Counted from the stretch's first letter, positions 21,272-36,036 are shown. The stretch: 64,000 nucleotides of DNA from Halarcobacter sp. (GCA_963676565.1 OY781089.1:1280001-1344000); one strand, 5' to 3'. The notes: generated from the letters alone by a model not told the origin. Translations and numbers: made by a program.

Positions 21272-21982
21272 ATGAGTTCAAAAATTATAATTTATGGATA
21301 TGAATCTTTAGGCTATAAAATAGCAAAACTTTTAGAAAAAAAAGATTATGAAATTATAATTGTAGATCCTATACAATCAAATTATGAGAAGGCCTTAGAA
21401 AATGGTTTTAAAAGTTATAATTATGATTTGATGGATGATGAACAATTACTTGATTTAGGAATTAAAAAAGATATAGATGCAATATTTTGTTTAAGTAAAT
21501 CAGAAAACAATAATTTATTTGTTGTTTTATCTAGTAGAAACTTAAATAAAAAACTAAAAATAATCTCCCTATCAAGTACTAAGCAAAGTAGTAAAAAAAT
21601 GATTCTTGCTGGGGCTTCAAAAGTTTTAAATCCTTATGAAGTTGGAGCTTTAAGAATTTTTAGACTTTTACACAGACCTTTGATATTAGAAGTACTAGAT
21701 AATATTTTATTTAATAAAACAGATTTAAAGGTAATAGAATACCCTATAACAAAAGATTCAATTCTAAATGAAAAGTTTGTAGAAGAGGTTGATTTTTCAA
21801 GAAGGTATAATTTAGTCCTAGTAGGAATTATGGATAAAGAACTTAGTGAAAAATTTATATTTAACTCAAAAGGGATTAATCACAAAATCGATGAAGGCGA
21901 TACTCTCGTTTTAATTGGTTATCAAAAAGATTTAGATATATTTAAAGAATTAACTAGGGGCATAGAAGGGGATAATGTATGA
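21272..21982 (+). CDS. TrkA-family NAD-binding (RCK) regulatory subunit
   Basis: IIYGYESLG Rossmann motif, AGASKVLNP, C-terminal TrkA-C. Confidence 0.88.
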   Translation: MSSKIIIYGYESLGYKIAKLLEKKDYEIIIVDPIQSNYEKALENGFKSYNYDLMDDEQLLDLGIKKDIDAIFCLSKSENNNLFVVLSSRNLNKKLKIISLSSTKQSSKKMILAGASKVLNPYEVGALRIFRLLHRPLILEVLDNILFNKTDLKVIEYPITKDSILNEKFVEEVDFSRRYNLVLVGIMDKELSEKFIFNSKGINHKIDEGDTLVLIGYQKDLDIFKELTRGIEGDNV

Positions 21983-24006
21983 CGCAATTTAATTTCTTTT
22001 TGAAATTATTGAAGGAATCTTTTAGAGATTTATTACCTATTATTATTGTAATCTTATTTTTTCAGCTTGCTATTATTCAAGCAGTTCCTGAAGGATGGGT
22101 TAGTACAGCGATTGGTTTAGGTATTGTTGGTGTTGGTTTAGCAATCTTTTTACAAGGTCTAGAAATAGGGGTATTTCCTGTTGGTGAAGGACTCGCTAGA
22201 GATTTTGCAAAACATGGAAACATGAAATGGGTATTGTTTTTTGGTTTTTTAATAGGTTTTGGTACAACCATTGCAGAACCTGCACTTGCAGTTATTGCTG
22301 ATAAAGCAGCATCAATTTCAAGTGGAAGAATTGATGCAACAGTTTTAAGACTAGTTGTTGCTGGTTCAGTTGGGTTTGCAATCTTTTTAGGGGTCTTTAG
22401 AATTTATAAAGGTCACCCAATTCACTATTATATTATTGCAGGATATATTGCTGTTGTAGGTGTAACATTTTTTGCACCGCAAGAGATTATTGGACTTGCA
22501 TATGACCTTGGCGGGGTTACAACTTCAACTGTAACTGTTCCGTTAGTTGCTGCACTTGGTATTGGTTTAGCTTCATCTATCAAAGGAAGAAATCCTGTCG
22601 TAGATGGCTTTGGACTTATTGCTTTTGCTTCATTAACTCCGATGATATTTGTGCAGATTTATGGAATAGCAGTTTATAATTTGGTTGAAGCAAAAGATGT
22701 TGCAGCTATCGCAATTGAAACAAGTGTTTCTGTTCCAACTGATATTACAATTAGTTCTATAATTACTGGAATTATAAATGTTGTAAAAGATGTTGCACCA
22801 ATTTTATTAATTATTCTATTTTTTCAATATGCAGTTATAAAGAAAAATATTGAAAAAATTAAAACTGTATTTTTTGGGTTTTTCTTAGTAGTTATTGGTC
22901 TTTATGCATTTATTCTTGGACTTGAAATGGGTCTATTTTCTCTTGGTGAGACTATGGCTTATCAACTTACAAAAAGAGACTCTGTATTTGTAATTTATGC
23001 TTTTGCTTTTGCAATTGGTTTTTCAACAACAATGGCTGAACCAGCATTAATGGCAATTGCTAAAAAAGCTAGAGAGATATCTGATGGTAAGATAAACGAT
23101 TTTGCCTTAAGAATCTTTGTTGCAGGTGGTGTTGCTATTGGTATTGCTTTAGGTGCTTTTAGAATTGTTGATGGTGGACATATCCATTACTATATCATTT
23201 TTGGATATATTTTAGTAATTGTTCTTACTTTTATTGCTCCAAAATATATAATTCCTATCGCATATGATAGTGGAGGGGTTACCACTTCAACAGTAACAGT
23301 TCCATTAGTTGCTGCACTTGGTATTGGACTTGCAACAAATATTGAAGGAAGAAGTCCTCTTATTGATGGTTTTGGACTTATTGCTTTTGCTTCATTATTT
23401 CCAATGATTACGGTTATGCTTTACGGTGTTATCACTGAGAAACTGGGAGTTAAATCTGATACTGAAATTGAAGCTCAAAATATCTTAAGAGATGCTCTTA
23501 TTGATGCAGAGAATATGGACTTAGCAACTGTAAATATTGATGGTAGTGATAGACGACATTCTTTACCAATGGACTTTTCAGCAGTTGTTATATTAGTTCC
23601 AAAAGAGAAAAAAATAGATGCAATTCAAGCTGCCAATAAAGCAGGAGCTCCAGGGGTTACTGTATTAAGAGCAGATGGAATAGGGCTTGGTAAAATAGAT
23701 AACTTTTATAGGTCTGGTTTTGAAGCAAATGATGTAATGTTATTATTCCTTTTACCTCAAAGTATGGTTAATCCTGTTATTAAATCGATTATTCATTCTT
23801 TACATATTACAACTACAGGAAAAGGTATTGCTTTTGCCTTCCCATTAACACATATGAAAGGGATTAGTTTAAGTAGACATGATATCTTTGTAAATAGAAA
23901 AGACCATAAGAATCTTGATAGTGAAGAGTTAATTAGACAAGAAGAGGAAAAATTAACAGAAAAGTTTAAAGAGACAGCAGTAGTTCATGAAGATATTAAC
24001 AAGTAA
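21979..24006 (+). CDS. Double DUF1538 membrane protein fused to a C-terminal P-II-like domain
   Basis: Two repeats of AEPAL...AYDxGGVTTSTVTVP...DGFGLIAFAS; C-terminal AGAPGVTVLRADGIG...GKGIAF. Confidence 0.85.
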   Translation: MTQFNFFLKLLKESFRDLLPIIIVILFFQLAIIQAVPEGWVSTAIGLGIVGVGLAIFLQGLEIGVFPVGEGLARDFAKHGNMKWVLFFGFLIGFGTTIAEPALAVIADKAASISSGRIDATVLRLVVAGSVGFAIFLGVFRIYKGHPIHYYIIAGYIAVVGVTFFAPQEIIGLAYDLGGVTTSTVTVPLVAALGIGLASSIKGRNPVVDGFGLIAFASLTPMIFVQIYGIAVYNLVEAKDVAAIAIETSVSVPTDITISSIITGIINVVKDVAPILLIILFFQYAVIKKNIEKIKTVFFGFFLVVIGLYAFILGLEMGLFSLGETMAYQLTKRDSVFVIYAFAFAIGFSTTMAEPALMAIAKKAREISDGKINDFALRIFVAGGVAIGIALGAFRIVDGGHIHYYIIFGYILVIVLTFIAPKYIIPIAYDSGGVTTSTVTVPLVAALGIGLATNIEGRSPLIDGFGLIAFASLFPMITVMLYGVITEKLGVKSDTEIEAQNILRDALIDAENMDLATVNIDGSDRRHSLPMDFSAVVILVPKEKKIDAIQAANKAGAPGVTVLRADGIGLGKIDNFYRSGFEANDVMLLFLLPQSMVNPVIKSIIHSLHITTTGKGIAFAFPLTHMKGISLSRHDIFVNRKDHKNLDSEELIRQEEEKLTEKFKETAVVHEDINK

Positions 24007-24741: not shown

Positions 24742-27702
24742 TTGAGAGAAGAAGTTCAAGAACTATTAAATGATAAAAAAACCTTACTTACAATCACTTA
24801 TTTTAAACTTCAAAAACTTTTAGAAAAAAAGTATGGGAACAATGCAGTTGTTCTTATGGAGATAGGAACATTTTTTGAAGTTTATGAAGTAAATAATGAT
24901 GAGGAACAAGTAGGAAAAGCAAAAGAGATTGCAGAACTTCTAAACATCCAGTTAACAAGAAAAAATAAATCTATTTTAGAAAACTCACAAGAAAATCCTA
25001 TTATGGCTGGAGTTCCAGCAATTTCATTTGAGAAACATTTAGCAAGAATAATTGCCGAACAAAAATATACAGTTGCAATTGTTAGACAAAAGGGACTTCC
25101 TCCAAATGTTAGTAGATATTTAGATACAGTTGTAAGTCCTGGTACAAACTTTGATTTTGTAGTTGACCAAGATGAAAACAATATCACTTCTTTAGTAATT
25201 GACCAAATAAGAGGTATCTATTTAGTTGGTTATAGTGCCATTGATGTAACAACAGGAAAGTGTTATTATAATGAAATACATGGTACTAGTGAAGATAAAT
25301 TTTATGCACTTGATGAAGTATTTAATTATATGAATATGCATAAAACCAATGAAGTAGTAATAAGCTTTGCAGATAAAAATATAAATCAAAAAGAGGTTAT
25401 TGATTACCTTGAATTAAAACTAAAAACTTTTCATATAGGAACTTTTAGACCAAAGATAAACTATCAAAATGAACTTTTTAAAAATGTATTTAGAATAGAG
25501 TCTTTATTAACAGCAATTGAACATCTTGATATGGAAAGGGTTCCCTTAAGTACAGAATCATTAGCTATTTTAATTGATTTTGTTATTGGACACGATTCAA
25601 ATATTATTCAAAAACTTTCATACCCTCAAAAACTTGATGTAAGTAGATATATCTATTTAGGAAATAATGCCTTAGAGCAATTAAATATAATAGAAACAAC
25701 CCACAATCCAAGTTTAATTAAACTGATTAATAACACTTCAACAGCTATGGGGAAAAGGCTATTAAAAGAGAGATTAACCCATCCTGTTAAAGACTCTAAA
25801 GAGATACTTAGACGATATGCCCTTTCAAAAGAGCTTTTTGATTTCCATACTCCAATTGAAAACGAGTTAGCAAATATTTATGATATTGAAAGATTAACAA
25901 GAAGAATAAAGTTAAATAGGCTACACCCTTTTGAGTTAAACTATTTATATGATTCTCTATTAAGTATTAAAGAAGTAGTTTCTTTTATGGAAAACTATAA
26001 GTTTTTAACTCCACCTTGTAGTAGTTCTGAATTACAACTTTTTATTCAATCTATTGATTCAACATTTGATTTAGCAATTAGTGGAAAATATATGCTAAAA
26101 GATGTTGAAGGAAATATGGTTTGTGAAGGGATTAATACCCAAATTGATGAACTAAATAAAGAAAATGAAGAGCTTTATACAAAACTTGAACTTCTTCAAA
26201 ATCATATATTAGGATTTTTAAAAACAAAAGATCCAAACTATGTTGGAATAAATAGATTAGATAAAGAGGGTTTCTTTCTAACTCTAACAAAGAATAGATT
26301 TAATCTAGTAAAAGAGGAGTTATTAAACTCACATATTATTATTGATGATGAATTACATTTATTTAAAGATTTTAATATAAAAATTCAAACAAACAATGTA
26401 AAGATTTTTTCTAAAATTAGTGAAGATGTTTCTGACAAATATGTTCATAATTTACGAAAAATAGTTGAACTAAACAAATTAGTATTTAAAGAAAAGATTT
26501 CAGAATTTGAGAAAAAGTTTGCAACACTTTTAGAAGAGTTAGTTCAATTTATTGCAGAAATTGATTTAACAGTTTCAAATATAAAAACAGCCAAAAAGTT
26601 CAACTACACTTGCCCAAAAATTGTAAAAACAAAAGATGAAGAGAACTTTTTAGAGCTTATAGACTTAAGACACCCAATTATTGAAGCAAATGAAGAACAA
26701 GGTATTTATGTACCAAATGATATTATCTTAGGTGAACTTAGCCTTGCTTCTAAAGAGTATAAAGATAATGTAATAGTAAAAAACTCAAATCCAATTAATA
26801 TGTTTAATAATAAGATGCATGGAGTTTTACTTTATGGTATTAACTCTTCAGGTAAATCATCTCTTATGAAAGCAATTGGTATCTCTGTAATTCTTGCACA
26901 AGCAGGTTTTTATGTGCCAGCAAAATCTATGAGATTTTCAATTTTTGATGCAGTTTATACTAGAATTAGTGGAGCAGATAATATTGCAAAAGGTTTATCT
27001 TCTTTTGCTGTTGAGATGTTAGAACTTAAAAATATTTTTAATAGAGCAACTAAAAACTCACTTGTATTAGGTGATGAAATCTCTCATAGTACTGAAACTA
27101 TGAGTGGTCTTTCTATTGTAGCTAGTGCTATATTGAAATTGGCAAAATTAGAATCAATTTTTGTATTTGCAACACACCTACATCAATTACCAGAAATTGA
27201 AGAGATTCAAAAGCTTAAGAATATAATAGCTCTTCATTTATCGGTTATGTATAAAGATGAAGAGGATAAATTAATCTTTGATAGAAAGTTATCATATGGG
27301 AGTGGTTCATCTATGTATGGTTTAGAATATGCGAAATCACTTCATATGGATAGAGAGTTTTTATCTGTTGCCAATGATATTAGAAAAAGACTCACTGATG
27401 ATTATAATCCACTTGAAAGATTGTCTCAGAGAAAGACCTCTAAATATAACAAAGATGTTTTTGCTGCATCATGTGTGATTTGTGGTAAAGCTTGTGATGA
27501 TGTACACCACATAAAAGAACAAGCAAGAGCAAACAAAGATGGCTTTATAGGTCATGTAAATGCAAACCATAAATACAATCTAATCCCACTTTGTAAAAAA
27601 CATCATAAGATGGTTCATGATGGAACAATAAATGTAAATGGTTTTGTTGCAACTTCGACTGGTCTTGAACTTCACTATACTATGGTAGATGAAGATAAAT
27701 AA
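24742..27702 (+). CDS. MutS-family ATPase with C-terminal HNH domain (MutS7-type)
   Basis: GTFFEVY mismatch motif, GINSSGKS, LGDE, FATH; C-terminal CVICG...VHHIKEQ...NLIPLCKKHHKMVH. Confidence 0.92.
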   Translation: MREEVQELLNDKKTLLTITYFKLQKLLEKKYGNNAVVLMEIGTFFEVYEVNNDEEQVGKAKEIAELLNIQLTRKNKSILENSQENPIMAGVPAISFEKHLARIIAEQKYTVAIVRQKGLPPNVSRYLDTVVSPGTNFDFVVDQDENNITSLVIDQIRGIYLVGYSAIDVTTGKCYYNEIHGTSEDKFYALDEVFNYMNMHKTNEVVISFADKNINQKEVIDYLELKLKTFHIGTFRPKINYQNELFKNVFRIESLLTAIEHLDMERVPLSTESLAILIDFVIGHDSNIIQKLSYPQKLDVSRYIYLGNNALEQLNIIETTHNPSLIKLINNTSTAMGKRLLKERLTHPVKDSKEILRRYALSKELFDFHTPIENELANIYDIERLTRRIKLNRLHPFELNYLYDSLLSIKEVVSFMENYKFLTPPCSSSELQLFIQSIDSTFDLAISGKYMLKDVEGNMVCEGINTQIDELNKENEELYTKLELLQNHILGFLKTKDPNYVGINRLDKEGFFLTLTKNRFNLVKEELLNSHIIIDDELHLFKDFNIKIQTNNVKIFSKISEDVSDKYVHNLRKIVELNKLVFKEKISEFEKKFATLLEELVQFIAEIDLTVSNIKTAKKFNYTCPKIVKTKDEENFLELIDLRHPIIEANEEQGIYVPNDIILGELSLASKEYKDNVIVKNSNPINMFNNKMHGVLLYGINSSGKSSLMKAIGISVILAQAGFYVPAKSMRFSIFDAVYTRISGADNIAKGLSSFAVEMLELKNIFNRATKNSLVLGDEISHSTETMSGLSIVASAILKLAKLESIFVFATHLHQLPEIEEIQKLKNIIALHLSVMYKDEEDKLIFDRKLSYGSGSSMYGLEYAKSLHMDREFLSVANDIRKRLTDDYNPLERLSQRKTSKYNKDVFAASCVICGKACDDVHHIKEQARANKDGFIGHVNANHKYNLIPLCKKHHKMVHDGTINVNGFVATSTGLELHYTMVDEDK
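27591..27702 (+). repeat. Left 112-bp direct repeat (3' end of MutS-HNH gene)
   Basis: 102/112 identical to 33203-33314 by manual alignment. Confidence 0.95.
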
Positions 27703-27866
27703 TCAAATTACTAAATTTGTACATGAATGAGGCTCTTAGTAGCTATAATTTTTAGCTCAATTTATTTATAATAAAGTTATTACATTCTAATCAAAATACA
27801 GCTATTATAATAATTGAAACTTGTACTATGTTAGTAATAAAAATATAAACCGATTGTGAGTAATTT

Positions 27867-30020
27867 ATGAGAACTTGTAAATATTTTCAAGCTAAAGGGA
27901 TTGACTATAAAGGTCAATTACAAAAAATTCCTAAAGCTAGTGTAAAACTTCAACCTTTGTATGAGGCTTTAACAAATTCAATTGAAGCAATAAAACTTTT
28001 AAAAGAAAAAAATGATGAAGCAAAAATCATTTTAAGTTTTTTCTTTATTAATAATTTATTTGGAGATGATGATTCTCTTGAATTATCAAAAATAGAACTT
28101 TTAGATTATGGAGTTGGATTTAATGATAAAGAGTTTGAAAGATTTACACAACTACATGATAATACAAAAGGATTTCATAATCAAGGTTCAGGACGTATTC
28201 AATATATGCACTTTTTTGATGAAACAAAATTTGAAAGTGTATATCAAGATGATAGTTCAGAAACAGGCTTTTTAAAAAGAATCTTTTGGTTATCAAAAAA
28301 TGATACTTTTTTAATCAATAAAGCTATAGTTTGTTTTGATGATCCAATTGCTGAACAATCTAAAGAATCCTTTACAAAGATTACATTTAAAAAATTTTTA
28401 GAGGAAGAGGATGCAAAATACTATAGTTCATTTTCTGCTGAAGAGTTAAAAGAAAAACTAATAGAACACTATTTATACTATTTTTGTGAGAATAGAAAGA
28501 ATTTACCAAAAATAGAGATTAAAACCTTTGTAGATGAAAAAATAAAAGAGTCTGCTGAAATAACACTAGATGATATTCCTTCCGAAGATAAAAGTGATAA
28601 TATTGAAATAAACTATAAAAAGCTTACAAGTGACAAAAAATTAATTACTCTAGAAGATGAAACTGAGACTTTTCATATTAAAGCATTTAAACTAAATAAA
28701 GAAGTCCTGCCAAGTAATGATTTGAAACTAACAAGCAAAAAAGAAATTGTTAGAGGTAAACTTGCCAAAAAATTTGAATTAAATGTTTTAAAACCTACTG
28801 ACACAATTGATGACAACAGATATTTGTTTTTAGTTTCAAGTTCTTATATAGATAAAAGAGACTCTGACAACAGAGGTGACCTTAAACTTTATACAGATGA
28901 AGAATTTAAAGAGAACACTTCATTATTTATTGAAGATAAAATCATTTCCTTAAATGATATTCAATCAAATATTAACAATCATGTTTTAACACTTTATTCA
29001 GAAATACTAGAAAAAAAGAATGAACATAATACAGATATAGCTAAGTTACAAGAGATGTTTTTAATTGATGAGGATAATATTAAAAGTGTAAATATCAATG
29101 TTCAAGATACTGATGAGGAAATATTAAAAAAAGTATATAAACATAATGCAAAAAGAGCTGCTGAAAATGATGCCAAGCTAAAAGAGGAAATTGAAAAAAT
29201 TAATAGTGAATTAGATGAAATGAATCCATCAGATAATACTTATAGGGATGATTTAAGTAAGAAAGTCACTTTATTAGTTAAGAAGATACCTTTACAAAAT
29301 AAAAATGAACTTGCACATACTGTAGCTAAAAGAAAACTTGTACTAGATTTATTTGATAAGATTCTTGATAAGGAACTTAGTATTCAACAAGGTGATACAA
29401 GGAATATAGATGAAGAGCTTTTACACAACCTAATATTTAAGCAGTCATCAACTAATCCTGAAGAAAGTGACCTTTGGTTGGTTAATGAAGATTTTATATA
29501 CTTTAAGGGTACCTCTGAAAAGAAATTGAGTGATATTACAATTGATGGTGAAACAATTTTAAAGGATTATGATAGTTTAACTAAAGAGCAAAAAGACTTT
29601 AGAAATTCTTTAGAAGAAAATAGATATTCAAAAAAACCTGATATATTACTTTTCCCTGATGAAGGTAAATGTATTATTTTAGAGTTTAAAAATCCAAAAG
29701 TTAATATTTCTTCCCATTTACAGCAAATTCAAAACTATGCAACTTTGATATGGAATTTTTCAAAAGATAAATTTCAATTCAATACTTTCTATGGCTATTA
29801 CATTGGCGAGAAGATAAATAATTTAGATGTGAGAAGTAAATATCCAAGCTTTGTAGAGTCTTATCATTTTGATTATTTATTTAGACCAAGTGAAGTTGTT
29901 GCAGGGTTCTTTGGTAAAAGAGATGCAAATATCTATACTGAAGTTATAAAATACTCTACACTTTTAAAAAGAGCAAAACGAAGAAATGAACTTTTCATTG
30001 AAAAGTTAGGGATTAAATAA
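27867..30020 (+). CDS. GHKL (HATPase_c/MORC-like) ATPase fused to C-terminal PD-(D/E)XK nuclease
   Basis: LYEALTNSIEA (N-box), DYGVGF (G1), NQGSGR (G2), central coiled-coil-like region, KPDILLF...IILEFK. Confidence 0.8.
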   Translation: MRTCKYFQAKGIDYKGQLQKIPKASVKLQPLYEALTNSIEAIKLLKEKNDEAKIILSFFFINNLFGDDDSLELSKIELLDYGVGFNDKEFERFTQLHDNTKGFHNQGSGRIQYMHFFDETKFESVYQDDSSETGFLKRIFWLSKNDTFLINKAIVCFDDPIAEQSKESFTKITFKKFLEEEDAKYYSSFSAEELKEKLIEHYLYYFCENRKNLPKIEIKTFVDEKIKESAEITLDDIPSEDKSDNIEINYKKLTSDKKLITLEDETETFHIKAFKLNKEVLPSNDLKLTSKKEIVRGKLAKKFELNVLKPTDTIDDNRYLFLVSSSYIDKRDSDNRGDLKLYTDEEFKENTSLFIEDKIISLNDIQSNINNHVLTLYSEILEKKNEHNTDIAKLQEMFLIDEDNIKSVNINVQDTDEEILKKVYKHNAKRAAENDAKLKEEIEKINSELDEMNPSDNTYRDDLSKKVTLLVKKIPLQNKNELAHTVAKRKLVLDLFDKILDKELSIQQGDTRNIDEELLHNLIFKQSSTNPEESDLWLVNEDFIYFKGTSEKKLSDITIDGETILKDYDSLTKEQKDFRNSLEENRYSKKPDILLFPDEGKCIILEFKNPKVNISSHLQQIQNYATLIWNFSKDKFQFNTFYGYYIGEKINNLDVRSKYPSFVESYHFDYLFRPSEVVAGFFGKRDANIYTEVIKYSTLLKRAKRRNELFIEKLGIK

Positions 30021-30038
30021 AAAAGGAATGGAGATATA

Positions 30039-33000
30039 ATGTATTTAGAATCATTACAAGAAAAAGATTTATATCTTGCCTATAAAAAGACAAAATTTGA
30101 ATTATTTAATGATAATATATCTACTTCTACCGTTCAACTATTTGAATATGAAGAGAATTTAGAAGATAATATTGATAAATTATATAAGAACATAAAAGAA
30201 GAAGGATTGTTTAATATTTGTTCTTATAGTTATTATGAAATACCTAAATCATATAATGAGAAGCAATCAGAAATTCAAGATGAAGTCCATTTCTTTTCAA
30301 GTTCTCTTATTCACCATAAGGGAAATAAACAAAAAAACATAGAACTAAAATTTAGAAAAATAATTGATGCTAATATTAATTTTCATATAATATCTACATT
30401 ATGGATAGATAAAATAGGACAATACATAGATGAAAAGTTGTCTCATGATGTTTATGGTTCACGGTTAGTGAGAATTAAACCTGTAGATATTAGTTCCTGC
30501 GAATATGATTTGACAATGCAAAGTTATAATTTAGAAAGCCCAAGAATTTTTGAACCATATCAATACAAATATCAAAAATGGAGAAATAATAGTTTTAATA
30601 CAATTAGAGAATTACATAAGTCTTCTTCTGTAATTGCAGTTACTATGGATATAACATCTTTTTATCACCAGATTGATATTGAGGAGTTTATTTCAAAAGA
30701 GTTTTATGACAATTTTGGATTAAGTGATTTATTTGAAGATAATGATGAATTAAAAATTTTTCATGAAGATTTTATTGCATTATTAAAAAAATGGAATAGT
30801 TCAATAAATTCAGAGGATGGACTTCCTATTGGTATTTCAGCTTCTCCTATATTAGCAAATGCTGTAATGAAAGAATTTGATAACAATATTGAAAATAAGT
30901 TAAAACCCACTTATTATGGAAGATATGTTGATGACATTTTATTAGTCTTTCCTGATTCAGGTAACATCCGAAATGGTGAAGATGTTATAAGATATTTAAT
31001 ATCAAAAGACATAGTAAAAAGAGATATAAAAAAAGATCCTAATAGTATCTTTTATAAAAAGTTCACTTTCAAAAAAAATAAACAAAAGATTTTTTATTTA
31101 GATAGAAACTCTGATTTAAGTATTATAGATGCAATTGAAAGTGAAATTAATTCTATATCAAGTGAATGGCGATTTATGCCTGATTTAGTTGATGACAACT
31201 CAACTTTTCTACAGAAAATTATAGGATTTTATGCTGATGGGAATGAGTTTAATGATGCTTTGAGAAAAGTTGATTCTACCACTATTAAAAAGTTGGGATT
31301 GTCTTTATTAATTGGACATGCACATTCTTTAAATGAATATATATCTCCATCAGAATGGAAAAATAAAAGACATGAAATATATGATTTAATAGAAAACCAT
31401 ATATTTATTCCAAGTAATTTTTTTAATAATTATATGTTTATAAGTAGAATCTTTAAACTAATGATTCATAGTGGAGATGGAGAAAGGGCTTATTGCTTTT
31501 TAGAAAAGACTATATCTATTATTGATTCATTTAGAGAAATCTCTTCTAAAAATTGTATAGCTTCAAATGGTAAAGATGTTGAGTTTTATAGATTTGAAAA
31601 ATATCATTATTCTCTACTGCAACAAGTGTTTCTAGAAACTTGTAATATATTGTCTAATATCAAAAAAAGGCATCTTTTAAAGATAATTAATACTTTATTT
31701 AATCAAGAAGTCTTTTGCGATTATTCTAATGTACTGATAACTTTCTATAATAGGGTTATGACTAAAGAAGTTGATAAAGAAGGTTTAATAAGTTTTGATA
31801 ATTTACATATACCTGCAACTGAAATAAATGAAGACGTAATAAAAGAAATAAATGCCCATTTATTTTTTAGGGATTTAGCTTTTAACTCTTTTTCAAGTTC
31901 TTGTACAGAATATGTTCTTACAAAAAACAATTATAATTTACTAAAAATGAATAGAAAGTTTTTATATAATAGATATAAAGACAGTAACCTTGAAATTAAA
32001 CTTAGTGAAGAGGATACTTATTTACTAGTTATTGATAATTTTAAAGAAAAAATTATAGAGGGTCTTTCTAATAGTCCTTTTTTATTCCCGACAAGAGTTT
32101 TTTCTGCAAATGATATATCTATAGTAAGTTGTATGTCAGATGGGAATCAGAACTCATTATTAAAAGCTTATGTGAATTGTTTAAGAGGAAATCATAATAA
32201 TTATTTTACAGATTCTCCCTTAGATAATAACAATAAAGAAGTTCTAACAATACCATATAAGAAATTTAGTAAGAGCGACAATATAAATATTGCAATTACT
32301 AATTTTAAAGTGGATGAAAGCTTTTGGAAAAAATCAGTCATAAAAAAACCTGTTAAAAGTTTATCTAGATATTTACAATTAGAGAGAATTATAAAAGATG
32401 CAGTTAAAAAGAAACCTGACTATTTAATACTTCCAGAGTTATCTATACCACAAGAGTGGGCTTGGAGAATATCTAAAAAATTACTATCTAATGGCATATC
32501 TTTGATTACAGGGGTAGAATATATTCACTCAGAAGTAAATTCTCAGAAATATGTTCATAATCCAATAATGATGTTCTTAATTTCAGATGATATTGGATTT
32601 AAGTATATGAAATATTTTAGACAAGACAAACAAGTTGGTGCACATGGAGAATCATTTGAATTAAAAAAGATTGCAAATATTGAACTTATTGCAGATAAGC
32701 TATATAAAAAGAAATATATTTATTCTCATGGTGATTTTTTCTTCTCATGTTTAATTTGTAATGAGTTAACAGATATTGAAAATAGAATGAGACTTAGAGG
32801 TAATATTGATACTCTATTTATAGTAGAATGGAACAAAGATATAAAATCTTTTAATTCATTAGTAGAGTCGGCTTCATTAGATATTCATTCGTATATAGTA
32901 CAAGTTAATAATAGAAAATATGGAGATAGTAGAATAAGAGCACCTTTTAAAGATGATTTTAAAAGAGATATTGTACAAGTCAAGGGTGGAAAGCATGACT

Positions 33001-33152
33001 ATCTAATAGTTGGTGAAATAAATGTTAATAGTTTAAGAAATTTTCAATCACACAATATTTCACCATCAGTACCTTTTAAGCCTGTTCCTACAGGGTTTAA
33101 AATGTTAAAAGCTAGAAAAAAATGGGAAAATGAAATAAAAGAAGATTTATAA
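30039..33152 (+). CDS. Reverse transcriptase-nitrilase fusion (defence-associated RT, DRT1/UG1-like)
   Basis: RT: MDITSFYHQID, GLPIGISASPILAN, YGRYVDD; nitrilase: LILPELS (E), RQDK (K), LICNELTD (C), VQVNNRKYGDSRIRAP. Confidence 0.9.
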   Translation: MYLESLQEKDLYLAYKKTKFELFNDNISTSTVQLFEYEENLEDNIDKLYKNIKEEGLFNICSYSYYEIPKSYNEKQSEIQDEVHFFSSSLIHHKGNKQKNIELKFRKIIDANINFHIISTLWIDKIGQYIDEKLSHDVYGSRLVRIKPVDISSCEYDLTMQSYNLESPRIFEPYQYKYQKWRNNSFNTIRELHKSSSVIAVTMDITSFYHQIDIEEFISKEFYDNFGLSDLFEDNDELKIFHEDFIALLKKWNSSINSEDGLPIGISASPILANAVMKEFDNNIENKLKPTYYGRYVDDILLVFPDSGNIRNGEDVIRYLISKDIVKRDIKKDPNSIFYKKFTFKKNKQKIFYLDRNSDLSIIDAIESEINSISSEWRFMPDLVDDNSTFLQKIIGFYADGNEFNDALRKVDSTTIKKLGLSLLIGHAHSLNEYISPSEWKNKRHEIYDLIENHIFIPSNFFNNYMFISRIFKLMIHSGDGERAYCFLEKTISIIDSFREISSKNCIASNGKDVEFYRFEKYHYSLLQQVFLETCNILSNIKKRHLLKIINTLFNQEVFCDYSNVLITFYNRVMTKEVDKEGLISFDNLHIPATEINEDVIKEINAHLFFRDLAFNSFSSSCTEYVLTKNNYNLLKMNRKFLYNRYKDSNLEIKLSEEDTYLLVIDNFKEKIIEGLSNSPFLFPTRVFSANDISIVSCMSDGNQNSLLKAYVNCLRGNHNNYFTDSPLDNNNKEVLTIPYKKFSKSDNINIAITNFKVDESFWKKSVIKKPVKSLSRYLQLERIIKDAVKKKPDYLILPELSIPQEWAWRISKKLLSNGISLITGVEYIHSEVNSQKYVHNPIMMFLISDDIGFKYMKYFRQDKQVGAHGESFELKKIANIELIADKLYKKKYIYSHGDFFFSCLICNELTDIENRMRLRGNIDTLFIVEWNKDIKSFNSLVESASLDIHSYIVQVNNRKYGDSRIRAPFKDDFKRDIVQVKGGKHDYLIVGEINVNSLRNFQSHNISPSVPFKPVPTGFKMLKARKKWENEIKEDL

Positions 33153-33202
33153 GACTATTTATATTTTCAAGTAAATCTTGGAATATTCATATTATACCTT
33201 TA

Positions 33203-33314
33203 TTGTAAAAAATATCATAAGATGGTTCATGATGGAACAATAAATGTAAATGGTTTTGTTGCAACTTCGACTGGATTAGAATTACATTATACAATGGTGG
33301 ATGAAGATAAATAG
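33203..33314 (+). pseudogene. Right 112-bp direct repeat: orphan copy of the MutS-HNH 3' end
   Basis: Translates CKKYHKMVHDGTINVNGFVATSTGLELHYTMVDEDK*, no start codon context. Confidence 0.92.
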
Positions 33315-33398
33315 AATAATATTTCTACAAAAAATTTAAAAAAATCATCTTTTTAATGTTAAAATACATAAAATATTTGTAGATTAAAAGGCTATTTT

Positions 33399-33791
33399 GT
33401 GAATGAACAAATAAAACATTATGAAGATAAATTAAAATATGAAATTGATTCATATGACCTATCAGTGCTTTTAGAAAAAAAAGAAAAAGTTATTGTAATA
33501 GATGCAAGGGCGACTGAAGTTTATAATCAATCACATATTCCAACTGCTATTAGTTTTCCCCACAGAACTATGAATGAAGAAACAACAAAAGATTTAGATA
33601 AATCATTTTTATATGTAACCTATTGTGATGGCATAGGATGCAATGCTTCAACAAAAGGAGCATTAAACATGGCAAAGCTAGGGTTCAATGTAAAAGAGCT
33701 TCTAGGTGGTTTAGATTGGTGGAAAAGGGATGGTTATGAAACCTTAGGAACAAAAGGAACTGCGAAACAAAATATTCAGTGTGGATGCTAA
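33399..33791 (+). CDS. Rhodanese-like domain protein
   Basis: VIDAR, SHIPTA, YCDGIGCNAS, GGLDWW. Confidence 0.92.
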   Translation: MNEQIKHYEDKLKYEIDSYDLSVLLEKKEKVIVIDARATEVYNQSHIPTAISFPHRTMNEETTKDLDKSFLYVTYCDGIGCNASTKGALNMAKLGFNVKELLGGLDWWKRDGYETLGTKGTAKQNIQCGC

Positions 33792-33814
33792 TTAGTTTTA
33801 ATCTAATTAACATC

Positions 33815-35137
33815 CTACTCTGAAGTTACATCAGGTAGTTTTGATGCCATAAAAACTCCAGCTAATCCTACAATTGCTAGTAGTAAAATAATTCCATTTA
33901 GACCAATAATTGAACTTAAAATACCAATAAATCCACTAAATAGTAAAATAAAACCAATAACAGTATTTGAAACAGCTACATAATCTGTTCTTTTATTTCC
34001 CCCTGCAAGGTCAACTAAATAGGTTTTTCTTCCTATTCTAATACCTTGATATCCAATAGTTAAAATAAAATAGATTAAGGGCATTAACCAAATAGTTGCA
34101 AAAATATTTTCAAAAAAAGTGTCTAAAAAGAATACTAGAAATCCTAAAATAGAAGCAATAGTTGCCCCAATAATCATAGAGTTTTTACTTGATTTATCTG
34201 ATAGTTTTCCCCAAATAATTGAAGAAGAAAAATCAGCTAATCCTCCTGCAAGTATAAAAAGGCCAAGTAAGTAGTTATTTGATTCACTTTGTTGTTGGGC
34301 TAAAATTACAAAAAATGGAGCAGATAAAACAGAGCATAAAAAAAGTGCCCTTGATATTACAAAATTTCTAAAATCTTTATCTGTTTTAAGTAATTTTACT
34401 TTTTTTAGTGCAACACTAATTGCATTTCCTCCACCATCAGTTTCCCCTTCAAACTCATTTATTCTTGAATATATCAGCCCTGCTATTATCCAAAAAGCAC
34501 CAGCAGAAAATAAAATTATTCCAAAGTTTTGAGGCGAAAAAGGCTTTTCTCCAACTATTAAAAAATAGATTCCAAGACCTATTATTAAAAGTCCAGCTAA
34601 ACTTCCAGAGTATCCATTTAATACCCCTCGTCTAGTTTTAGGAATAGTTTTTCCTAAGACATCCTTTGCGGCAACTGAGCTAAGACCCCTTGCAAGTGAA
34701 AAAACAATAATTAATGCAATGATTGCAATTCCTGCATTAAGTCCTGTCATATTCCAAGCAACAATTCCAATTCCTATCATAGAAAGCGCTTGTAAAAAAG
34801 CACCACTCACCCAAACATATTTTCTAATAGGCATTTTTCTAACATAAGCAGCAATTAAAAGTTGAGGTAGAAGTGAACCTGATTCTCTAATAGGAACAAG
34901 GAAACTTATTAAAAAAAGAGGTACTGAAATTGATTCCATAATCCAAGGTATAATAACCTTCGTATTTGCAACTGAGTCTGCTAATTTATTAAAAAAGTAG
35001 CTAATTATTGTAAGAAAAAAGTTTCCAGGAACTACTTTACAAGCACTTTCATCAATTGCTTTACAAACTCTAGCATCTTCTTCATTCATCAGTTTTTCAT
35101 AAACTGATTCAGTTTTTTTTCTAATTCTTTCTTTCAT
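33815..35137 (-). CDS. MFS transporter
   Basis: About 12 hydrophobic segments, WGKLSDKS loop motif. Confidence 0.88.
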   Translation of the reverse strand: MKERIRKKTESVYEKLMNEEDARVCKAIDESACKVVPGNFFLTIISYFFNKLADSVANTKVIIPWIMESISVPLFLISFLVPIRESGSLLPQLLIAAYVRKMPIRKYVWVSGAFLQALSMIGIGIVAWNMTGLNAGIAIIALIIVFSLARGLSSVAAKDVLGKTIPKTRRGVLNGYSGSLAGLLIIGLGIYFLIVGEKPFSPQNFGIILFSAGAFWIIAGLIYSRINEFEGETDGGGNAISVALKKVKLLKTDKDFRNFVISRALFLCSVLSAPFFVILAQQQSESNNYLLGLFILAGGLADFSSSIIWGKLSDKSSKNSMIIGATIASILGFLVFFLDTFFENIFATIWLMPLIYFILTIGYQGIRIGRKTYLVDLAGGNKRTDYVAVSNTVIGFILLFSGFIGILSSIIGLNGIILLLAIVGLAGVFMASKLPDVTSE

Positions 35138-35306
35138 CTTTTTTATTTTCTTCTTTTCTTCGTTTTTTTTCTTTTAAAATATTTCTAGTCATTAGTAATA
35201 AAAAAAGTAGGGCAATTGAGATATTTATATAAAAGCCTAACATATTGTTTTCTATAAAAAACATATATGCAAGGCTAGAAAAGATTAGTGAGATTATTAA
35301 GCACAT
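35121..35306 (-). CDS. Small membrane hypothetical protein (start uncertain)
   Basis: Hydrophobic segments plus basic tail; fills the hisA-MFS gap. Confidence 0.45.
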   Translation of the reverse strand: MCLIISLIFSSLAYMFFIENNMLGFYINISIALLFLLLMTRNILKEKKRRKEENKKDERKN

Positions 35307-35322
35307 AAAGTATATGTGCCTA

Positions 35323-36036
35323 TTAGTTTTCTAAAACTTTAAACCCTTCTTCTAAGTCTAAAGTTCCTTCGTAAAATGCTTTACCAACAATTACTCCAGC
35401 AATATTTCCATTGGCTTTACAAGAAGTTATATCGTTAATATCTTTTACTCCACCGCTTGCAATTGTATCAACACCACTAGCAAGGGCAATTGATTCAGTA
35501 AATTCTACATTTACACCACAAAGCATCCCATCTTTTGAAATATCAGTACAAATAATTGCCTCAACGCCAGCATTTGCAAACTCTTTGGCTAAATCAGTTG
35601 CCCTCATTGTTGAAACTTCAGCCCAACCTTCAACTGCAACCATTCCATCCATAGCATCGATTCCAACAGCAATTGGATATTTTGAAGCCATATCTTTTAC
35701 AAATTGTGGATCTTTTACTGCAATTGAACCTAAGATAAGTCTGTCAATTCCTAGTTCAACATACATTTTGATAGTTTCTTCATCTCTAATTCCACCACCA
35801 ACTTCAATATTTAGATTACAGTTTTCTTTGATTTTTTTGATTTGTTCTAAGTTTGCTGGTTCCCCTGCAAATGCTCCATTTAAATCAACTACATGAACCC
35901 ACTTAGATCCTAACTCTTCAAATCTTTTTGCTACTTGCCATGGCTCATCTGAATAGATTTTTGCACTATCCATAAGTCCTTTACTTAATCTTACAGCTTT
36001 TCCATCTTTTAGGTCGATTGCTGGTAAAATATCCAT
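35323..36036 (-). CDS. hisA: ProFAR isomerase
   Basis: [34 protein letters not shown]. Confidence 0.98.

Follow-up and report, generated by a model that had tools for sequence, protein, structure and literature searches.

Mestre et al. (2022; PMC9226505) described UG5-large, one of the class 3 groups of UG/Abi reverse transcriptases (RTs), and traced it to 'family F2' of an earlier survey. RT-nitrilases of this group were catalogued between 2008 and 2022, their role in phage defence was shown in 2022 and 2026, and DNA synthesis without a template and with a protein primer was reported for the class in 2026. Here we analyse a member of this group in Halarcobacter sp. (GCA_963676565.1 OY781089.1:1280001-1344000), within a stretch of 64,000 nucleotides that we call the window and from whose first letter all positions are counted. 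The gene (30039..33152) encodes a 1037-aa protein, hereafter the RT-nitrilase, and lies directly behind a gene for a GHKL ATPase fused to a nuclease; both genes occupy an insertion at the 3' end of mutS.

Several relatives have been characterized experimentally. In E. coli, a system composed of an RT-nitrilase and a transmembrane (TM) protein has proven antiphage activity, and the downstream TM-protein gene is optional in UG5-large, being found in 31 of 299 members (PMC9226505). DRT11, from S. meliloti RMO17, is a 1005-aa UG5-large protein without a TM partner that protects Sinorhizobium from podovirus-like phages (Sanchez-Nieto et al., 2026; PMC13436386). This protection is reported to depend on the multiplicity of infection, to resemble abortive infection, and to be lost in RT (DD-to-AA) and nitrilase (C-to-A) mutants. 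According to the same report, RNA-seq gave no flanking non-coding RNA (ncRNA), and deletion of 179 bp upstream was harmless. The RT-nitrilase of Halarcobacter shares with DRT11 the lack of a TM partner, the lack of an evident ncRNA and a variable region. It differs in being chromosomal, located at mutS, paired with a GHKL-nuclease gene and carried by a host that is Campylobacterota-like to judge by the names of homologues. Moreover, DUF4136, the connector named in PMC13436386, was not found in our Pfam scan of the protein.

The nearest solved sequence is DRT1/UG1 of Klebsiella pneumoniae, likewise a class 3 RT-nitrilase, whose structure was obtained by cryo-EM (9YFD; PMC13275509). Neville et al. 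(PMC13275509) report DNA synthesis without a template and with a protein primer for DRT1 and for DRT5S/L. In DRT1, the DNA adducts drive tetramers to stack into dormant filaments, swapped C-terminal tails close the nitrilase site, the substitutions K1219A and A1223F abolish defence, and activation requires a phage single-stranded DNA (ssDNA) helicase. In the same work, purified class 3 'DRT5S' and 'DRT5L' made covalently attached DNA without a template and with RNase A present. We take DRT5L to be UG5-large, as read from its name and from the phrase 'class 3'. DRT1 is ~200 aa longer than the RT-nitrilase studied here, similarity between the two is detectable just in the palm of the RT and over the final ~125 residues, and on our protein the Drt1a hidden Markov model scores 103 bits versus 810 bits for UG5.

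The class 1 UG/Abi enzymes AbiK, Abi-P2 and AbiA, which perform template-independent, protein-primed synthesis, also place a helical repeat domain after the RT, and structural alignments to the RT-nitrilase span both parts (Z 9.2-10.9, 379-403 residues). They differ from it in having no nitrilase effector; their Z scores fall in the chance range of helical repeats, so the helical likeness is architectural only.

The features of the Halarcobacter gene are as follows.

30039..33152, + strand: UG5-large reverse transcriptase-nitrilase gene (P0001), 1037 aa (open reading frame, ATG start, PADLOC match, AF2 model)
30039..31103, + strand: RT domain, fingers and palm, residues ~1-355, with the D204 codon at 30648-30650 and YVDD at 30924-30935 (Pfam RVT_1, structural alignment, conservation)
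31104..32264, + strand: predicted alpha-helical repeat middle domain, residues 356-742 (all-helical in both models)
31161..31163, + strand: Ser375 codon in the SSEWR motif, candidate priming residue (invariance and MAFFT alignment)
32271..33101, + strand: C-N hydrolase (nitrilase) domain, residues 745-1021 (fold matches and invariant residues)
32436-32438, 32628-32630, 32757-32759 and 32826-32828, + strand: codons of the nitrilase residues E800, K864, C907 and E930 (second Glu), respectively
33075..33098, + strand: C-terminal FKPVPTGF motif, likely nitrilase 'lid' (invariance and profile alignment to DRT1)

The initial annotation, made on this DNA without knowledge of its origin, had described a 1037-aa protein with both catalytic centres intact, and this description holds. 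The reading frame is open for 1037 codons on the + strand, from the ATG at 30039 to 33152, and the start is preceded by a purine-rich ribosome-binding site, AGGAATGGAG, rated good. The motifs lie where they had been placed: TMDITSFY (D204), GLPIGISASPILAN (residues 261-274) and YVDD (30924-30935) in the RT, and PELS (E800), QDK (K864) and LICNE (C907) in the nitrilase. In an alignment of 90 homologues at 31-63% identity, D204, Y296, D298, D299, E800, K864 and C907 are invariant (90/90), which is far beyond chance, and E930, the other glutamate of the nitrilase, is almost invariant. The only Pfam family seen in the protein is RVT_1 (E 2.4e-13, residues 168-306), and the CN_hydrolase model gave no match at E <= 0.01. 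Upstream, the open reading frame (ORF) at 27867..30020 stops exactly 18 nt before the start, as had been stated. Downstream, the ~50 nt given in the initial annotation has to be replaced by 246 nt, measured to the next credible gene (rhodanese, 33399).

By profile match, the ORF can be assigned as a full-length member of the known UG5-large family. The PADLOC model PDLC03780 RT_UG5-nitrilase aligns to residues 4-1034 over profile positions 19-904 of 907 (E 1.3e-243, 809.5 bits), and the protein displays the features of the family: an RT with YxDD and the motif-A Asp, a C-terminal Glu-Lys-Cys hydrolase, a length of ~1000 aa and an inter-domain extension. The sister profiles UG5_small (122.1 bits) and Drt1a (102.9 bits) are weaker, and the retron-type PADLOC profiles are lower still. 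The best stretch of the Drt1a profile is confined to the nitrilase end (residues 775-1019). The NCBIfam Drt3a model is far under its cut-off, as are the NCBIfam retron RT model (55 bits, cut-off 235) and group II RT model (33 bits, cut-off 300). The earlier statement that the protein is not of retron, intron or diversity-generating retroelement (DGR) type is thus upheld: UG/Abi models score best, and the retron and group II intron RT models are far behind.

Two assignments were considered and rejected. Membership in DRT1/UG1 was discarded on the Drt1a score (102.9 bits, with no full-length match) and on length (1037 aa versus 1200-1300 aa). Retrons, group II introns and DGRs were discarded on the RT scores, the lack of an Rfam match, the folding of the flanks, and the finding that the only long repeat is the mutS duplication described below.

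The family is widespread. An index of 5.8 billion proteins yielded 787 homologues at E <= 0.001, the nearest at 63% identity, and in a collection of species-representative genomes 533 of 613 candidate stretches were confirmed as family loci. Named close relatives belong to Aliarcobacter, Sulfurimonas and Sulfuricurvum, and proteobacterial members are ~30-33% identical to the RT-nitrilase. The gene is present in a single copy in its own 3.34-Mb genome. Across the order, it is sparse: 3 of 301 sampled genomes match at E <= 1e-20, this genome included, and nothing in the one further genome of its genus matches at that threshold. A tblastn search of 50,697 phage records with the RT-nitrilase returned no match.

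The genomic surroundings of these relatives point to defence. Among 115 relative loci with a complete RT-nitrilase ORF, the adjacent genes include 14 PglX-like (Eco57I-type methylase) and 5 PglZ genes, and 6 YhcG/DUF1016 PD-(D/E)xK nucleases are immediate neighbours. BREX loci often enclose the UG5-large gene, between pglX-like and pglZ genes, which is a position typical of defence islands; such BREX-like nesting (PglX-type methylase, PglZ) occurs in many Proteobacteria and in other phyla, often with a YhcG/DUF1016 nuclease directly upstream (loci L004, L006, L029, L035, L041, L044, L046, L047, L053, L056, L057, L062, L065 and L066). The closest genome-borne relative (54% identity) has a YhcG nuclease upstream and a RhuM fragment on its other side. 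This fragment, a truncated RhuM-family ORF (G206, L075:9997-10554), has a 4-nt overlap with the stop of that UG5-large gene, and the group forms another mini-island of different composition.

In the Halarcobacter locus, no ORF of at least 50 aa, and hence no TM partner gene, is found between 33152 and the rhodanese gene at 33399, which hold just a 30-codon relic of mutS. As a separate observation, an ORF of ~160-172 aa recurs directly downstream of distant UG5-large genes (L098:7958-8476, L101:7378-7878 and L105:7968-8453); a single hydrophobic segment is predicted in it, Pfam gives no match, and it may correspond to the published TM partner.

Taken as a whole, we consider it likely that the gene encodes an intact, stand-alone antiphage RT-nitrilase of the UG5-large ('DRT11') type, acquired horizontally with a paraMORC3-like gene at mutS. 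The mechanism that we infer, in each of its biochemical steps, would be as follows. The RT domain would make short, semi-random ssDNA without an RNA template, and this synthesis would prime on a hydroxyl side chain of the RT-nitrilase itself, for which the invariant Ser375 is a candidate. The covalent DNA adduct would then drive assembly of oligomers or filaments through the nitrilase domains, and within such an assembly the Glu800-Lys864-Cys907 site of one subunit may be covered by the conserved K-x-x-P-x-G-F tail at the C-terminus of its neighbour. Phage infection would release or activate the nitrilase, which would hydrolyse an essential amide- or amine-bearing molecule, so that the infection aborts. 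The initial annotation had already proposed template-independent or protein-primed synthesis coupled to a C-N hydrolase effector, a proposal that agrees with the published work on the family; the template-free, protein-primed reading is already in print and is not a new inference.

As an ordinary member of a known family, this copy matters little alone, and the family-wide questions (nitrilase substrate, phage trigger, priming residue) are not made more tractable by it. As a divergent, AT-rich member, it could help to define the conserved core of UG5-large. What this locus adds is the anatomy of the mutS insertion, a facultative association with a gene of paraMORC3-like type, the correspondence of the C-terminal lid and the Ser375 proposal.

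The AlphaFold2 model of the full protein, built on the 90-row alignment, has a mean pLDDT of 87.6 and a pTM of 0.90. Its nitrilase domain aligns in VIA-align with 2e11_A (Z 23.2, rmsd 2.6 Å, 228 aligned), and 23 further nitrilase-superfamily chains exceed Z 18 for residues 745-1021. In a Foldseek search against a PDB library of entries released up to 2026-04-08, the nitrilase domain alone was matched, with probability 1.00. The RT fold (residues 1 to ~370-419) aligns with DRT2 (Z 14.7, rmsd 4.4, 268 aligned), a DGR RT (Z 14.1) and a group II intron RT (Z 12.7). When the helical region is included (to ~560-616), the matches are DRT6 (Z 10.9, 407), AbiA (Z 10.9, 380), Abi-P2 (Z 9.4, 403) and AbiK (Z 9.2, 379).

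The middle region of ~400 aa had been left as uncharacterized in the initial annotation, with structure prediction as the suggested next step. That prediction was run, and the region is modelled confidently as an all-helical repeat domain. Folded alone with 76 homologous segments, residues 356-742 reached a pLDDT of 77.9, and a comparison of this model with 48,161 chains returned designed helical repeats and HEAT/ARM-type solenoids at Z <= 10.0. Scores in this range indicate a common arrangement rather than kinship, and the region, as modelled, is a generic alpha-helical repeat domain without a recognisable catalytic fold. The DRT1 structure is reported to have an alpha-helical repeat domain between RT and nitrilase (PMC13275509). 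We infer that the two domains correspond; 9YFD was absent from the structural matches obtained. Confidence in the full model declines from about residue 371 and is lowest at residues 403-410. DRT1 residues 382-478, which include its priming serine, lie outside the resolved part of its structure (PMC13275509), and the low-confidence stretch presumably corresponds to them. A complex prediction with two copies of the nitrilase domain (740-1037) scored 0.05 against a mark of 0.42, a result that is uninformative either way on oligomerisation.

The C-terminal end provides one link with the mechanism of DRT1. K1014, P1015 and P1017 are invariant in the 90-homologue alignment. With the family profile, the nearest solved sequence is DRT1 (9yfd, E 5e-24), and the profile alignment places K1014 on K1219, P1017 on P1222, G1019 on G1224 and F1020 on F1225. 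FKPVPTGF is thus likely to be a nitrilase 'lid' matching the C-terminal residues of DRT1. The assignment of a priming residue is made with modest confidence. Ser375 is invariant in 90/90 and 76/76 sequences and stands at the end of helix 361-376, in a part of the model with falling confidence. A genome-encoded close homologue of DRT1 (P0242) served as the stand-in for DRT1. The comparison rested on MAFFT because hhalign, run with the family profile against a DRT1 homologue, returned the nitrilase domain alone. In the MAFFT L-INS-i alignment (15 sequences, weakly similar region), Ser402 of the homologue falls on I373, S403 on S374 and I404 on S375. Ser375 offers a candidate priming serine that can be tested.

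Some points weigh against the proposed reading. The term UG5 does not occur in PMC13275509, and the supplement files searched contain none of DRT5L, DRT5S and UG5. Filament formation and lid autoinhibition, as well as Ser priming and the Dda trigger, are documented in that paper for DRT1 only, and DRT1 Ser402 is described there as not conserved in other class 3 DRTs. The Ser375 proposal depends on one alignment, with an offset of one to two columns, in a weakly similar region. The 18-nt junction with the nuclease gene, and the recurrence of the pair in a metagenome locus (L083, see below), may leave room for a functional partnership. Finally, the 246 nt downstream of the two-gene unit and the 164 nt upstream of it are non-coding, and could encode an unstructured or unknown RNA.

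The two genes arrived together, as can be seen from their borders.

24742-27702, + strand: 986-aa MutS homologue that combines domains I, III and V of MutS with a C-terminal HNH nuclease domain (DUF968/HNH), the insertion target
27602..27701, + strand: left repeat copy, the present 3' end of mutS-HNH (repeat family D1)
27867..30020, + strand: 717-aa GHKL ATPase and PD-(D/E)xK nuclease gene, paraMORC3-like, P0122 (motifs, architecture)
33214..33313, + strand: right repeat copy, apparently the displaced mutS 3' end, with the relic ORF 33222-33314 (repeat search)

A direct repeat of 100 nt (92% identity, spacing 5612 nt) brackets exactly the GHKL-nuclease and RT-nitrilase genes, its right copy beginning 61 nt past the RT-nitrilase stop. 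The 30 residues encoded by the relic ORF are identical to those at the C-terminus of MutS; all nucleotide differences within the 30 codons are synonymous, and the stop is TAA versus TAG. The copies differ at nine positions; the right one matches related genomes at five of them and the in-gene one at two, small numbers that suggest that the original is the right copy, now displaced, and that a mutS end of its own came with the inserted DNA. ORF and domain scans found no integrase within the 5.6 kb. Contigs assembled from the DNA run of the same organism (X1) break at both repeat copies, with equal depth across the island and its flanks, and a second contig set (X2) contains short pieces identical to the island. 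The G+C content of the island (25.2%, versus 28.9% for the window) is not distinctive. The two genes form a 5.6-kb insertion at the mutS 3' end, probably acquired horizontally.

The target is itself well conserved, the mutS-HNH protein having 84-87% identity in related genomes, and the interval behind it, between mutS and hisF (27703-36036), is variable among relatives (compared with L080, L081 and L082). In a same-genus genome, mutS-HNH directly adjoins hisF-hisH and the interval is empty. In two genomes of a neighbouring genus, ~6.5 kb of unrelated genes lie between mutS and hisF: those for an amino-acid permease, a GGDEF protein and a response regulator, together with an operon for ethanolamine ammonia-lyase. 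In the window, the interval holds the defence pair, the rhodanese and an MFS transporter.

The upstream partner combines an N-terminal GHKL module with a C-terminal restriction-endonuclease-fold D...ExK, as do paraMORC3 (Iyer et al., 2008; PMC2292703) and VcSduA, which is described as a single-gene antiphage protein (PMC12137116). In all 26 homologues aligned (26/26), the motifs E33/N37, D80-x-G82-x-G84, G107-x-G109 and the C-terminal D592...E606-x-K608 are invariant. Pfam gave a weak HSDR_N match (E 7e-4, under the Pfam cut-off) and neither DUF4263 nor HATPase_c at the thresholds used, and PADLOC gave no match; among atlas neighbours of the protein, 11-23% of the members have HATPase_c families. 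In its architecture the protein agrees with paraMORC3, an assignment that would rest on motifs, architecture and context. The 632 homologues carry mostly Bacteroidota and Campylobacterota-type names, and some are named 'ATP-binding protein'. In 80 genome loci of the GHKL family, from which 241 neighbouring ORFs were taken (loci without a complete family ORF were skipped), 11 neighbours are HsdS-like, mostly just upstream, 10 are HsdR-like, mostly just downstream, and 7 are HsdM-like, two genes upstream. The family is thus often found within type I restriction-modification (R-M) operons, between hsdS and hsdR.

The main alternative, which we regard as unlikely, is that the RT-nitrilase and the GHKL-nuclease form one two-gene defence system in which the nuclease replaces the TM partner of some UG5-large loci. 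The DNA adduct of the RT or the nitrilase product might gate the nuclease, for example, or the nitrilase might be triggered by the GHKL clamp on sensing phage DNA. Both genes lie on one strand, the 18 nt between them show no signal of a promoter or terminator above background, and the 100-nt repeat marks the bounds of the single unit in which they entered the genome. The same pair recurs 2 nt apart in the metagenome locus L083, in different surroundings (RT identity 60%, GHKL 68%). Three more pairs of RT and GHKL homologues share a longest-contig size (7407, 10697 and 5621), which, as a match of sizes alone, suggests that they may be linked; a fourth (33089) is P0004, whose RT is identical to that of L083, and is not independent. 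In a FastTree phylogeny of 28 rows, from which 39 close-clade and outgroup rows had been dropped, linked RTs occupy both halves of a 15-row clade (local SH-like support, not bootstrap, of 95).

However, each gene commonly occurs without the other: no RT-nitrilase lies within 6 kb in any of the 80 GHKL-family genome loci (0/80), and no GHKL gene is present in the 67 RT-family genome loci (0/67). Of nine distinct close-RT loci with at least 1 kb of upstream DNA, only one, L083, has the GHKL gene upstream; when the genomes were scanned again with the alignment of the close clade, the distant loci recovered were essentially the same and no close relatives were added, so that the nine stand. The unlinked L090 falls inside the linked clade, close GHKL homologues occur on long contigs (17775, 17698 and 47447) without a matching RT contig, and the usual home of the GHKL family is the type I R-M operon. 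Furthermore, VcSduA, of the same design, is reported to defend alone (PMC12137116), as is DRT11 (PMC13436386). The pairing is thus recurrent in one verified metagenome locus but facultative, and most likely the RT-nitrilase and the GHKL-nuclease are two independent single-gene defence modules travelling together in one lineage.

It is a comparably doubtful proposal that a Campylobacterota sub-clade of UG5-large gained an operonic GHKL-nuclease, moving with it as a unit and constituting a coupled two-effector variant, and that, separately, Ser375 primes UG5-large. If true, the coupled RT-nitrilase/GHKL-nuclease would be a UG5 variant not yet described, and the recurrent pairing could be tested for synergy.

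Far less probable is that the RT copies a specific ncRNA, as DRT2, DRT9 and retrons do, encoded in the 246-nt or 164-nt spacer or within a coding region. The initial annotation had argued that there is no room for an ncRNA. Its 18-nt upstream gap is correct, and the argument is weak: non-coding space does exist at the locus, namely 246 nt downstream and 164 nt before the two-gene unit. In addition, the RT core finds its best structural match in DRT2 (Z 14.7), which uses an ncRNA template. On the other side, no family reached threshold when 27000-34500 was scanned with Rfam at E <= 1; the sole match, to a snoRNA family (27.9 bits, where the gathering score is 50), falls within the upstream ORF and is a chance one. 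The downstream and upstream spacers fold no better than shuffled sequences (z -0.86 and +0.54, respectively). Of the 246 nt downstream, 100 nt are the duplicated mutS fragment, and the spacer has no conserved block in common with L083, the one related locus with the same gene pair, where a convergent gene starts 16 nt past the RT-nitrilase stop. Around the 115 relatives, intergenic distances vary widely, from overlaps (often negative values) to several hundred nt. Thus, by computational criteria, no template RNA signal appears detectable in the flanks. This is in line with DRT11, for which RNA-seq and the upstream deletion are reported to have revealed no ncRNA (PMC13436386), and with the class 3 enzymes that make DNA with RNase A present (PMC13275509).

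Least probable of all is a passenger gene that is silent or in decay, or one with a nitrilase that serves ordinary metabolism: the gene is not part of a large defence island in its surroundings, and it has housekeeping neighbours (mutS, his, the MFS transporter, rhodanese), but its frame is intact with all catalytic and family-invariant residues kept, a good ribosome-binding site precedes its ATG, its structural model is confident, its relatives stand in BREX and other defence contexts, and UG-associated nitrilases are reported to branch apart from metabolic ones (PMC13436386; PMC9226505).

Outside the insertion, on the far side of mutS, a 675-aa ORF (21979-24006, + strand) matches both UmpA and UmpB, subunits of a Na,Li,K/H+ antiporter, and has a P-II-like C-terminus; the two subunits are apparently fused.

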